From Actinomycetota bacterium (GTDB lineage: Bacteria; Actinomycetota; UBA4738; HRBIN12): 63,306 bases of DNA. Under the pieces are notes generated by a model, which ran no database searches, was not told where the DNA came from, and was given only the letters and a program-made list of their open reading frames with translations. The position numbers and the translations under genes are program-made. Shown here piece by piece: positions 33,648-35,818 of the stretch (the stretch's first letter is position 1; every line of letters starts with the position of its first letter). Where the stretch lies: the NCBI GenBank assembly GCA_046731295.1, contig JBKPKU010000015.1:1-63306 (forward strand), in the 5' to 3' direction.

Positions 33648-33742
33648 CAGGCCGGAACCTATCACCGTCCCAAACGGCGCGCGTCAATACCGTATGACGA
33701 GGTCCCATAGGTCTTACGTGGTCCGCGCGGTGCAGGATCTCG

Positions 33743-33766
33743 TAACTCCAAGCCGCCTTGGTGTAA
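33743..33766. promoter_or_regulatory. Second operator copy overlapping the regulator -10 (TAATAT, probable leaderless start)
   Basis: taactccaag..cttggtgtaa aligns with 33624-33647; TAATAT lies 6 nt before ATG 33776. Confidence 0.55.
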
Positions 33767-33775
33767 TATCTGGCC

Positions 33776-34486
33776 ATGCTGAACGGGCTGCGACGAGACG
33801 CGGAGGCGCTCGGGGCGCTCGAGGACGAGCTGCGCCGGAGCCTGTACCTGTTCGTGCGGTCGCAGGGCCGGCCGGTCAACCGGGACGAGGCCGCGGGCGC
33901 GGCCGGCATCTCGAGGAAGCTGGCGGCGTTCCACCTCGACAAGCTCGTGGACCGGGGGCTGCTCATCTCCTCCTACGCGCGCCCGCCCGGGCGCGGAGGC
34001 CGCGGCGCCGGCCGGACCGCCAAGTACTACGAGCCCTCGGATCGCAGGATCGACGTGTCGATCCCCGAACGCCGGTACGACGTGCTGAGCCAGGTCCTGC
34101 TGCGCGCGCTGCGTTCCCGCGGCCACGCCGAGACCGGCGAGGACGCCGCCCGCCGCGTGGCACAGGAGACCGGCCTGGAGATCGGTCGCGCCGAACGCGA
34201 GCGCCTGGGCATCCCTCCCCCGGGCGCCGAACGCGCCCTCGCCGCCGCCGAACACATCCTCGAGGCCCGCGGCTACGAGCCCTACCGGGACGACACGGGG
34301 TGCGTGCACCTTCGCAGCTGCCCCTTCCACGAGCTCGCCGAGCGGGACCGGGACTTCGTCTGCACGCTGAACCAGCGGCTGCTCGAGGGGATCGTCCGGG
34401 GACTCGGCAACGAGACGCTCGACGTCGTGCTCGAAACCGCGACCGAGGAGTGCTGCGTCGTGCTCGAGCCTCCCGCCGCCCGCTGA
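33776..34486 (+). CDS. ArsR-like HTH transcriptional regulator with Cys-rich C-terminus (COG2345-type)
   Basis: AAFHLDKLVDRGLL, GAGRTAKYY, CPFH..VC..CCV. Confidence 0.88.
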   Translation: MLNGLRRDAEALGALEDELRRSLYLFVRSQGRPVNRDEAAGAAGISRKLAAFHLDKLVDRGLLISSYARPPGRGGRGAGRTAKYYEPSDRRIDVSIPERRYDVLSQVLLRALRSRGHAETGEDAARRVAQETGLEIGRAERERLGIPPPGAERALAAAEHILEARGYEPYRDDTGCVHLRSCPFHELAERDRDFVCTLNQRLLEGIVRGLGNETLDVVLETATEECCVVLEPPAAR

Positions 34487-34501
34487 CCTCCGCTTCAAGC
34501 C

Positions 34502-34536
34502 GAACGGGCCGGGTCCGTTCGGGACCCGGCCCGTTC
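34502..34536. terminator. Intrinsic terminator-like hairpin, probably bidirectional
   Basis: Perfect 15-bp stem gaacgggccgggtcc/ggacccggcccgttc with a 5-nt loop. Confidence 0.8.
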
Positions 34537-34689
34537 ATCACCCTGCGATCTGCCTCACCGGTGCTTCGGCCTCCGACGGAGGCTTCGTCCGGTAGACCAG
34601 CCGGAACCGATGAGGTTGGTGAGCTGGTTTGGATTCTGCCGGTCGCCCGGCGGACGGGCGGGGCGGTGGCCCCGGCCCGCGAGGGACGG

Positions 34690-34731
34690 CTAGCAGCCAG
34701 TCACCTCGGGGGTCTCCTGCTGTTTATGCAA
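34690..34731 (-). CDS. 13-aa micro-ORF MHKQQETPEVTGC inside the candidate RNA
   Basis: TTG start 8 nt after AAGGAGGT; TAG stop. Confidence 0.45.
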   Translation of the reverse strand: MHKQQETPEVTGC

Positions 34732-34761
34732 GTAGGACCACCTCCTTTCTCCCGTGCCGCC

Positions 34762-34790
34762 ATGGTGCGACAGATTCCCGGGTGTGGCAA
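34762..34790 (-). promoter_or_regulatory. Housekeeping-type promoter TTGCCA-N17-CACCAT
   Basis: Near-consensus -35/-10 with 17-nt spacing; predicted start ~34755. Confidence 0.55.
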
Positions 34791-34812
34791 ATACGCCGGT
34801 GAAGGAACTCCT

Positions 34813-35328
34813 CTACCGGGCCGGCTCGTCGTCGAACAGGTCGAGGCGCCAGTCGTTGCACCGGACGAACCCGCCGCCGCGGGCCGGGAAGTCGATCCCC
34901 TCGACGAACTCGAATCCGAGCTTGCGACAGATCGCGTTCGACGGCGCGTTGACGGTCATCGGGTACGCGTGGACGAACCGGTGCAGCCGCTCGGCGCGGG
35001 CTAGCTCGAGGAGGTGCGCCATGGCCGTGCCGGCGGCCCCCCGTCCTTGGAAGTCCGGGATCACGGCCCATCCCGTCTCCCAGACCTCCTGCTCGCGCCA
35101 GGTGCGTTCCCAGTACCCCACCCACCCGATGTGCTCGCCGCCGGGCTCGACGATCGCGTACTGGCGCGACCCGGGCGTCTCGTACCCGATCTGGCGCTCG
35201 GCGACCTTGTCGAGGGTCTCCGGCCCACCGACGTGCTTGGTCATGTCGGGCTCGTTGAGACGCTCCAGGAGCGGGAGGTCGTCCTTGCCCCACGGCTCCA
35301 GACGGACCTCCAGGCGGTTGGCGTTCAC
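34813..35328 (-). CDS. GNAT family N-acetyltransferase (RimJ/RimL-like)
   Basis: ETGWAVIPDFQGRG, NAPSNAICRKLGF. Confidence 0.9.
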   Translation of the reverse strand: MNANRLEVRLEPWGKDDLPLLERLNEPDMTKHVGGPETLDKVAERQIGYETPGSRQYAIVEPGGEHIGWVGYWERTWREQEVWETGWAVIPDFQGRGAAGTAMAHLLELARAERLHRFVHAYPMTVNAPSNAICRKLGFEFVEGIDFPARGGGFVRCNDWRLDLFDDEPAR

Positions 35329-35536
35329 GCGACCGACCACGCGACGAGCGGCGGCCGAACGCCCGCGCATCGCGGCCAGCCCTGCTCGTCGGTCAGCCCG
35401 AGCGACACAACCAGGCGTCCGCCGCGGATCTCGAGGATCATCGAGCCATCGTCCCACCGTCCGTCGGGCCGGAGTCCTCACGTACGCTCTGGCCTCCAGC
35501 GGTGGCTCACGCCGATCCCACCGGAACGGAGGACGC

Positions 35537-35818
35537 ATGATCGTGCACCTGGCCATCCACACGCCCAAGCCCGAGGGCGTCGAACCGCTGATCGGGTCGA
35601 TGCAGCTGTTCGCCGCCGCCGGCCGCAAACAGCCCGGCCTCCAGGAGGTGCACACGATGCGAGATGCGGAGTCGGGCAAGCTCCTGGGGCTCGCGATCTG
35701 GGAGTCGAAGGAGGCGTTCGAGCGCGGCGTGCTGGCGATGCGCGCCGCCGTCGAGGACGACCCGTTCCTGGACTGGGAGGAGGGACCTCCCGAGGTGTAC
35801 GTGTTCGAGGACGTGTAG
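35537..35818 (+). CDS. Antibiotic biosynthesis monooxygenase family protein
   Basis: QPGLQE, LAIWESKEAF; SD ggagg. Confidence 0.8.
   Translation: MIVHLAIHTPKPEGVEPLIGSMQLFAAAGRKQPGLQEVHTMRDAESGKLLGLAIWESKEAFERGVLAMRAAVEDDPFLDWEEGPPEVYVFEDV

Follow-up and report, generated by a model that had tools for sequence, protein, structure and literature searches.

A divergent Ms_IGR-5 (RF02471) RNA of an Actinomycetota bacterium as a candidate ribosome-docking mini-mRNA

The studied RNA that comes closest to the element described here is rreB of Bradyrhizobium, a small mRNA of 165 nt with a 17-nt region complementary to the 3' end of 16S rRNA and a GTG-started open reading frame (ORF) of 14 codons (Hahn et al., RNA Biol 2016, PMC5711450). 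According to the available excerpts of that paper, rreB was found in the ribosomal pellet and in the 30S fraction of gradients, where the 5' extension of its Shine-Dalgarno (SD) sequence was needed. Its translation was kept weak by the long SD and the GTG start, and the RNA was stabilised once the start codon was swapped for a stop codon. The first five bases of the complementarity region were predicted to be single-stranded and the remainder to lie in a conserved hairpin, and analogues (rreR and others) were reported solely from alpha-proteobacteria. A second group is the Rfam family RF02471 (Ms_IGR-5), an Actinobacteria small RNA (sRNA) in which IGR-5 is ncMSMEG15794c of M. smegmatis (PMC10454040). 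It entered the record as an sRNA that co-purifies with heterologous Hfq (Li et al. 2013, as cited by PMC10454040), was validated by RNA-seq in S. lividans (PMC8079986) and is listed as one of two Rfam-matched sRNA transcription units of S. avermitilis (PMC8780764). In M. abscessus and M. smegmatis, ribosome footprints are reported on its homologues (PMC4974804). No mention of a long SD complementarity or of a mini-ORF was found in the available excerpts of the literature on Ms_IGR-5/RF02471. The present work concerns an intergenic element with a GC-rich body, read directly on the minus strand (34502-34790) of a 63,306-nt stretch of an Actinomycetota bacterium (contig JBKPKU010000015.1), hereafter the window, and its comparison with these two groups. 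The features of the element given below are all on the minus strand.

Like rreB and rreR, as far as these are described in the excerpts of PMC5711450, the element looks like a small mRNA that stands alone and has a promoter and a terminator of its own, with a 16-17-nt anti-16S region of which only the 5' part is predicted to be single-stranded, with a small ORF (14-18 codons in the published cases) and a weak start codon, and with no conserved synteny outside the family. It differs in belonging to another phylum and in being longer (~215-255 nt versus 165 nt). In addition, the complementarity of rreB runs into the first base of its GTG start, whereas the TTG start of the element comes 9 nt after GGAGG and is 3 nt past the 16-nt segment. 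Binding to 30S was shown for rreB and would be a prediction for the element, which is likened to rreB and rreR by their published description. By this analogy the element most likely works as the rre-type small mRNAs do, with the same logic in a different geometry.

The reading that we favour is that the element is a ribosome-docking mini-mRNA whose translation would remodel the RNA itself, and a probability of roughly 55% is given to the mechanism as stated here. As predicted from the aligned sequences, the 5' end is clamped by a helix (P1a) and the purine-rich core of the anti-16S segment is exposed in an internal loop, whose neighbouring part of the segment is taken up by a second helix (P1b). 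A 12-14-codon ORF with a weak start, as read from the same sequences, overlaps P1b and P1a (3' strands) and a long-range helix, P2 (5' strand), and ends at a stop codon fixed 9 nt past an internal GAGGUG. A free 30S subunit would dock on the exposed SD loop, and the full duplex with the 16S tail would then melt P1b and free the start codon. With its long SD duplex and its weak start, initiation would combine strong binding with slow firing. Every ribosome that passes would unzip P1 and P2 and refold the RNA body. In this way the RNA could read the availability of ribosomes or the status of initiation, and the output would be the conformation or the lifetime of the RNA itself.

The anti-16S segment (AGAAAGGAGGTGGTCC) occupies positions 34750-34735 and constitutes the extended SD AGAAAGGAGGUGGUCC (34735-34750), complementary to the 16S 3' tail. 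The window's own assembly (2.65 Mb, 215 contigs, 86.6% complete) has no 16S gene, and the sequence ahead of the spacer is ...GGATCACCTCCTTTCT in the 16S genes of five out of five relatives, one sharing the genus, one the family and three the order. Against this tail, the exact mature 3' end of which is assumed, the segment pairs at 16 of 16 positions with 15 Watson-Crick pairs and one G-U, so that the pairing proposed by the first-pass annotation from actinobacterial 16S sequence is borne out. Unbroken 16-nt runs against the tail (Watson-Crick and G-U pairs) occur at only two sites in the 2.65-Mb assembly, and only the site of the element has a single G-U, the other requiring four. Unbroken complementarity of at least 16 nt, measured against the relatives' tail, was present in 42 of 42 homologues at the level of the order and in 29 of the 30 found with the Rfam model. 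From these alignments the extended SD segment is near-invariant and a family trait, in agreement with the ribosome-engaging look first attributed to the element. As part of the SD is also a strand of P1b, docking of 30S and formation of P1b would be mutually exclusive.

Two further observations concern extended SD segments. The same genome has a second extreme SD on contig C13 (minus strand, ~867 bases from the contig end as read on that strand), where GGGGGGGAGGTGATCC abuts the GTG start of a 50-codon hydrophobic ORF; its geometry is of the rreB type, with complementarity reaching the start codon. In one family of the phylum sample (f19, 27/31 genomes) a variant combines the perfect complement GGUGAUCC with a longer loop. 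By eye the homologous in-frame start position of this variant is AUA or AUC with no NTG, which would be a near-cognate start if used.

The mini-ORF (MHKQQETPEVTGC, 34690-34731) has 13 sense codons, from a TTG start (34731-34729) to a TAG stop (34692-34690). It includes an internal SD-like GAGGUG (34702-34707) that is invariant in 42 and in 150 aligned sequences, and the stop begins exactly 9 nt later. Three sets of loci were collected without asking for a start or stop codon: 42 by BLAST, 30 by the Rfam model (two of these, L192 and L202, from unpublished genomes) and 120 by a pattern of SD and GAGGTGNCTG. The first stop in the GAG-GUG frame was exactly five codons on in 42/42, 30/30 and 114/120 sequences, with TAG, TGA and TAA all used. 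An in-frame NTG placed 4-16 nt after GGAGG, with no intervening stop, was present in 42, 29 and 112 sequences of the three sets, and the same start test gave 4, 6 and 19 in the +1 frame and 0, 0 and 5 in the +2 frame. In a second pass the stop rule held in 190 of 196 sequences, 189 of these 190 with an in-frame start. The in-frame start was kept across 13 SD-to-GAGGUG distances (35-52 nt), which cover all three residues modulo 3, so the position of the start moves to preserve the frame. ORF length ranges from 12 to 18 sense codons (12 in 93 sequences, 13 in 73), and the start codons are TTG (94), ATG (53), CTG (27), GTG (13), ATA (1) and ATT (1). TTG accounts for 94 of 190 in the family versus 32 of 615 in the start background of the window's own genome, which is noisy; CTG accounts for 186 of 615 in the same noisy background and no enrichment of CTG is claimed. 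Since start, frame and stop are conserved far beyond what the other two frames give, translation is apparently selected, and on this comparative evidence the mini-ORF is likely to be translated under selection.

The conservation of start, frame and stop is also what would be expected of a micro-protein gene, in which the 12-18-residue peptide is functional and the RNA fold merely tunes its synthesis. By eye, several families open with M-H-K-P with synonymous changes (CAT/CAC and CCG/CCC), and one TGC-to-TGT change preserves a terminal Cys. Moreover the rreB and rreR peptides are reported to be conserved within clades (PMC5711450, excerpts), although the same text describes synthetic RreB and RreR as unstructured. 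The peptides themselves speak against this explanation, as there are 146 distinct ones among 189 ORFs, with lengths from 12 to 18, and codons 3-5 change non-synonymously within the window's genus and family (K/T/E/R, Q/P/R/S). The sole residues identical across the family (T-x-E-V) are encoded by helix strands and GAGGUG, and the codon before GAG may encode R, P, L, S or T without loss of its base pairs. A functional micro-protein is considered unlikely, and in the docking mini-mRNA the peptide is most likely a by-product. The earlier suggestion that the RNA and not the peptide may be the functional product agrees with the selected fold and with the diversity of the peptides, but it was too strong if understood as RNA and not translation, given the conserved start, frame and stop.

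The fold was obtained from an alignment of the window's element with 41 relatives (42 sequences, not counting four truncated loci and three unpublished genomes), and the consensus given by RNAalifold was completed by hand to nine helices. Pairing was found in 95.5% of 1999 cells and 23 of the 49 pairs had changes on both sides; none of 500 shuffles reached the observed values, and partners slid by 1-3 columns gave 38-57% pairing. The homologues and the covariation that were looked for after the first-pass annotation were both found, the former as long matches in 48 of 60 relatives and the latter in these 23 of 49 compensatory pairs. Folded as a single sequence the element has an energy of -138.2 kcal/mol (z -4.76, with 0/200 shuffles as stable). 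The RNA fold is, as judged from covariation, under selection.

Helix P1a ties RNA bases 2-5 to the four bases directly before AGGUG, pairing CGGG (34751-34754) with CCCG within the ORF (34707-34710), and it covaries. In an alignment of the 5' core across the family (150 distinct sequences, after removal of six mis-located loci and of two from unpublished genomes) 95.8% of the P1a cells are paired, and three of the four pairs are changed on both sides, in 72, 56 and 27 of the 150 sequences. The covariation score of P1a is 0.339 versus 0.128 +/- 0.007 after shuffling (0/500 as high). P1b pairs GGUC within the extended SD (34736-34739), which is invariant in the order, with GACC within the ORF (34711-34714); in the wider family the pairing is GUCC/GGAC in 105 and GGUC/GACC in 57 of 195 sequences. 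Between P1a and P1b lies the internal loop, eleven bases (AGAAAGGAGGU, 34740-34750) that are unpaired in the consensus fold.

Helix P2 pairs GGUGACUGG within the ORF (34697-34705) with CCAGCUCACC (34618-34627). It closes a domain that holds two hairpins and an unpaired, near-invariant AGAAUCC. The latter is part of the conserved unpaired stretch AGAAUCCAAA (34628-34637, family motif GAAUCC), placed just before the 3' strand of P2, in near-invariant columns and present in most family members. Two stems had been proposed earlier to sequester the 3' half of the ORF and its stop. The first of them is P2, which is supported (99.7% of cells paired, 3/9 pairs compensatory in the 42 sequences). For the second, CUGCUAGCCGUCC with GGGCGACCGGCAG, the outer 5 bp (CUGCU with GGCAG) are pairable in 99.5% of cells but never covary, and the inner part, paired in 42.7% of cells, competes for bases with the local hairpin P4. 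The 3' strand of P4 can alternatively pair with the CUGCU beside the stop codon, and this stem and P4 may be alternatives.

The conserved unpaired motifs of this fold bring to mind a trans-acting base-pairing sRNA, in which the conserved loops (GAAUCC and those of the UGGUC type) would pair with target mRNAs, the SD-like segment and the ORF being incidental. Such a role would fit the way in which the family was first catalogued, as an sRNA recovered together with heterologous Hfq (PMC10454040, citing Li et al. 2013). However, a phase-conserved ORF with its stop is unexpected for a purely non-coding RNA, as are the ribosome footprints reported on homologues (PMC4974804, excerpts), and this explanation is held to be quite unlikely.

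The complementarity could also be taken as the mark of a stoichiometric sponge or hibernation-type RNA, which would park small subunits or shield the 16S 3' tail and for which the ORF would be irrelevant. The run of at least 16 nt spans the whole free 16S tail, and rreB is mainly on 30S (PMC5711450, excerpts). Nevertheless a sponge leaves the conserved in-frame start and the fixed stop unexplained, and there is one gene copy per genome. Moreover the authors of rreB judged that ribosomes far outnumber the RNA, the overproduction of which had no effect on growth (PMC5711450, excerpts). It is regarded here as very unlikely.

The relation to Ms_IGR-5 rests on a chain of homology. In a permissive Rfam scan the single relevant match of the element was RF02471, with 21.7 bits and an E-value of 0.042 over 3.5 kb; the alignment runs in order from model positions 1-184 of 184 to 34755-34561. 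Genome-wide (E 0.0074) the element was the best of three weak matches and there was no better copy. In a scan of a sample of 151 genomes of the phylum, RF02471 was found in 43 genomes at E<=0.001 and above its cut-off in 19, and under the stricter filters applied in that scan the element itself gave no match. Relatives in the window's family and order score higher, with 41.7 bits for G170 (same family), 29.5 for G048 and 25.8 for G130. An nhmmer profile of the window's order matches loci of Mycobacterium, Micromonospora and Kineococcus whose RF02471 scores are 176.5, 98.5 and 85 bits (L050, L051 and L055, with profile E-values of 1.9e-6, 1.1e-7 and 8.6e-6), and also L167 (E 1.5e-11; 57.5 bits) and L074 (E 6.5e-10; 51.6 bits). 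The link to the family is firm because the profile of the order matches loci above the RF02471 cut-off, with relatives of intermediate score bridging the gap. In addition, the parts stand in the same order across all family members, to which the SD loop between P1a and P1b, the phase-fixed mini-ORF and P2 are common. The element is very probably a divergent member of RF02471 by homology.

The order shared with Ms_IGR-5 is a 5' ACAC/ACGG clamp, AAGGAGGUGGUCC, the start-codon loop, GGAC-N-CGUG-AGGUGGCUG, the stop, variable hairpins, GAAUCC, CAGNCACC and a 3' hairpin domain. The single copy and the own promoter are also alike, and the element is probably expressed as a small RNA too. The element differs in its P1a (CGGG/CCCG versus CACG/CGUG), in a P1b shifted by one base and in its 3' domain, which is a three-way junction with a separate terminal hairpin. 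The consensus structure printed by Rfam with RF02471 contains neither P1 nor P2 of the present fold. The curated structure pairs GGUGGU with GCUGCC, without the P1a/P1b clamp and the long-range P2, and its annotation may need revision. The novelty claimed in the first-pass annotation is lost, both by membership of RF02471 (a sub-threshold match together with the homology chain) and by the fact that small mRNAs with a 16-17-nt SD (rreB/rreR) had already been published. The kind of RNA is one already catalogued, with rreB as a studied analogue, and the element is a new divergent member of it. What looks unreported in the available excerpts of the searched literature is the family-wide anatomy, with an SD loop flanked by covarying helices and a mini-ORF of fixed phase, and the reach beyond Actinomycetota.

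Several points weigh against the docking mini-mRNA or the evidence brought for it. The RF02471 score of the element falls below the gathering score of 45 bits. One of the 23 relatives of the same genus (G002, 83% complete, 9 contigs) has no long match, which may be due to loss or to an assembly gap. The stop rule is broken by 6 of 196 sequences; three of these are Blastocatellia loci in which the script chose a neighbouring CAGGTG and which conform when read by eye. In 27 sequences only CTG is present at the start, which is common by chance in GC-rich DNA. Most of the conserved codons of the ORF sit in helices and the nucleotide conservation there is not creditable to coding; likewise the 3' part of the 16-nt segment lies in P1b, and its conservation could come from the helix alone. 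In one homologue GGUGAUCC pairs with GGAU, the G-to-A change covarying with C-to-U (by eye), so the P1b helix is itself under selection. The minimum-energy fold of the single sequence pairs part of the SD with distant sequence, and it was set aside for the fold supported by covariation. The contigs from RNA libraries described below give presence and a weak hint of the ends, and neither strand nor level. Finally, the unaffected growth on overproduction of rreB, quoted above against a sponge, counts against a docking role as well (PMC5711450, Discussion, as excerpted).

The promoter of the element consists of a -35 hexamer TTGCCA (34785-34790) and, after a 17-nt spacer, a -10 hexamer CACCAT (34762-34767), followed by a likely transcription start at an A (34755), 7 nt past the -10; the end there of a 171-nt metatranscriptome contig with 0 differences is weak evidence for it. 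The promoter is called because TTGCC and nAnnAT are kept at fixed spacing in the relatives' alignment, in addition to the RNA contig ending at 34755. At the other end a 15-bp GC-rich hairpin with a 5-nt loop (34502-34536) is a probable terminator; it stands between convergent genes, has no U-run, and its arms covary in relatives. A simple consensus scan for promoters and terminators flagged neither on the minus strand here. CACCAT has 3/6 matches to the E. coli consensus, and the silence of the scan was not counted against the element because actinobacterial -10 boxes and terminators without U lie outside its rules. The promoter with its 17-nt spacing, the 16-nt segment, the TTG-started 13-codon ORF and the 15-bp hairpin had all been named by the first-pass annotation and read in the sequence as it gave them.

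The stretch 34400-34900 occurs in soil and rhizosphere runs, and six RNA libraries hold 24-33% of its words. Contigs from four RNA libraries (four studies) cover only 34543-34755, besides one weak 35-nt piece of the upstream GNAT gene. Two contigs from different studies begin at 34543 without loose ends, short of the 15-bp hairpin, and adapter sequence adjoins two contigs at 34742 and 34745. The uncovered parts (34400-34542 and 34757-34900) were not taken as evidence of absence. DNA runs hold up to all the sampled words of the stretch and DNA carry-over into the RNA contigs is formally possible. From its sequence and these contigs the element is most likely a separately transcribed RNA of ~215-255 nt.

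The upstream neighbour is a GNAT acetyltransferase gene on the minus strand (34813-35679, Pfam Acetyltransf_3/1), whose stop is at 34813, leaving a 22-nt gap to the -35 (from 34790) on the same strand. Downstream lies a convergent plus-strand ORF (33776-34486) without a Pfam match, so no co-directional ORF follows the element. The neighbours vary across lineages: an aminotransferase IV in Mycobacterium, MsrA and a metallo-beta-lactamase in Micromonospora, a nitroreductase in the Zixibacteria record, YetF in the Gemmatimonadota record, and a divergent M61 peptidase with a convergent chemoreceptor (MCP) at the Leptospira locus. All-against-all BLASTP of the flanking ORFs was muddied by spurious GC-rich ORFs and was used only alongside Pfam. 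That the element is a cis element, either the 3' untranslated region of the GNAT gene 22 nt before it on the same strand or a leader or attenuator of a downstream gene as co-directional ORFs in some actinomycete loci might suggest, is hardly credible against the convergent next gene, the varying neighbours, the conserved own promoter and RNA contigs that do not run on into the GNAT gene. The varying neighbours, the promoter and the contigs lying essentially on the element likewise uphold the earlier claim of a standalone RNA and not a leader. A plus-strand ORF of 436 codons (33694-35004), which crosses the element and the GNAT gene in antisense, was rejected as spurious, as it has no Pfam match and 1-2-nt indels in relatives break its frame. 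Such a GC-rich ORF could mislead gene callers.

The remaining helices were also placed by the consensus fold. Hairpin P3 (34656-34678) has double changes in 4/7 pairs, and hairpin P4 (GCCGG-GCGA-CCGGC, 34638-34651) is 98.1% paired with one compensatory pair. The 3' domain (34553-34615) is a three-way junction P5-P7 supported by the consensus fold and by covariation, with P5 (34607-34615 with 34553-34561) showing double changes in 7/9 pairs, hairpin P6 (34588-34605, loop CUGGUCUA) in 2/5 and hairpin P7 (34569-34583) in 6/6. The P6 loop (34594-34599) and the homologous loops have a conserved UGGUC(U/C/G)A or GUCCA. This motif echoes the UGGUCC of the extended SD, and the GGAC of P1b or the 16S tail could be its pairing partner.

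The distribution was evaluated with a BLASTN search of 34500-34800 against 60 relatives, with the RF02471 scan given above and with a strict pattern, and these counts include 13 unpublished genomes. BLASTN matches at E<=0.01 were obtained in 55 of 61 genomes, the window's own included. The long matches (E<=1e-10) in 48 of the 60 relatives are divided into 22/23 of the same genus, 9/13 of the same family and 17/24 of the same order; one family within the order had none in three genomes. The strict pattern (RGGAGGTGRTCC, 14-44 nt, GAGGTG, 9 nt, TRR) was present in 188 of the 401 genomes sampled from the phylum, nearly always at a single place, versus 1 of 401 for the reversed control. By family within the phylum it reached 26/26 or 27/31 in some and 0/28 or 0/13 elsewhere. 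A search of plasmids with the element gave 12 chance-level matches (E 0.2-0.6) and no homologue.

Names of other phyla are carried by 17 of the 120 pattern loci, several of them with AT-rich flanks and TTGACA-type promoters. The arrangement of SD, mini-ORF, GAGGUG and stop was seen in records of Leptospira jelokensis (L070), Zixibacteria (L159), Gemmatimonadota (L167), Blastocatellia (L096, L079 and L114) and Terriglobales (L061 and L132), and in the further non-actinobacterial records L073, L074, L099, L110, L124, L125 and L144. Four of the 14 other-phylum loci scanned exceed the RF02471 cut-off: Gemmatimonadota with 57.5 bits, Zixibacteria with 55.9, Blastocatellia with 52.3 and Polarisedimenticolia with 51.6. 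The other-phylum records are mostly metagenome bins, and mis-binning is possible for each; the Leptospira record is an isolate genome, but it is below the Rfam cut-off and has a poor P1a. In a sample of Acidobacteriota, the phylum of the Blastocatellia record, RF02471 was found in 3 of 61 genomes and the strict pattern in 8 of 121, with two genomes for the reversed control. This would mean either a sparse presence of the element in that phylum or a lack of sensitivity of the model. As a name for the family, 'Actinobacteria sRNA' may be too restrictive.

Among other known systems, leader-peptide attenuators and upstream ORFs also have a tiny ORF whose translation would remodel downstream helices. 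The element differs from them in having no following regulated gene, no terminator/antiterminator pair before an operon and no run of regulatory codons. In the prfB frameshift site an SD-like sequence stands a few bases before a stop codon, and the internal GAGGUG of the element at a fixed 9 nt from its stop resembles this as a lead only, with neither a slippery sequence nor a downstream frame. An Azospirillum plasmid was tried as a test of homology with rreB and rejected, as three of the four exact SD-complement sites read (of five) are 16S genes backwards. At the fourth, on the plasmid of Azospirillum sp. TSH58 (L210, ~1282167), GAAAGGAGGTGATCCA stands directly before an ATG-started 58-codon ORF with a signal-peptide-like start and without the Ms_IGR-5 core. 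The excerpts of PMC5711450 mention a plasmid-borne 'rre' gene of Azospirillum, which this site probably represents.

Ms_IGR-5, in the catalogues since 2013 and transcribed in both mycobacteria and streptomycetes, has no assigned function, and the anatomy given here makes one directly testable. The open SD between covarying helices, the phase kept over 13 spacer lengths, the fixed stop with three codons and the predominance of weak starts point to regulation at the ribosome. These features tie an actinobacterial 'sRNA' to rreB, the only studied small mRNA with an extended SD. As a tentative extension, the Ms_IGR-5-type RNAs, and possibly the rre small mRNAs too, might form one ancient class of ribosome-docking mini-mRNAs which would sense free 30S or the status of initiation factors. 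Its range would be about half of the sampled Actinomycetota and scattered Acidobacteriota, Gemmatimonadota, Zixibacteria, Leptospira and others. It would be defined by an SD in an internal loop, a deliberately weak start (TTG, CTG, GTG, or AUA/AUC in one family), a 12-14-codon ORF overlapping helix strands and a stop fixed 9 nt after GAGGUG. The internal SD would hold the ribosome at termination, with the refolded RNA as the effector. If such a class does sense 30S or initiation status, it would represent a widespread and overlooked layer of translational control, and a caution against annotating RNAs of this kind as non-coding.

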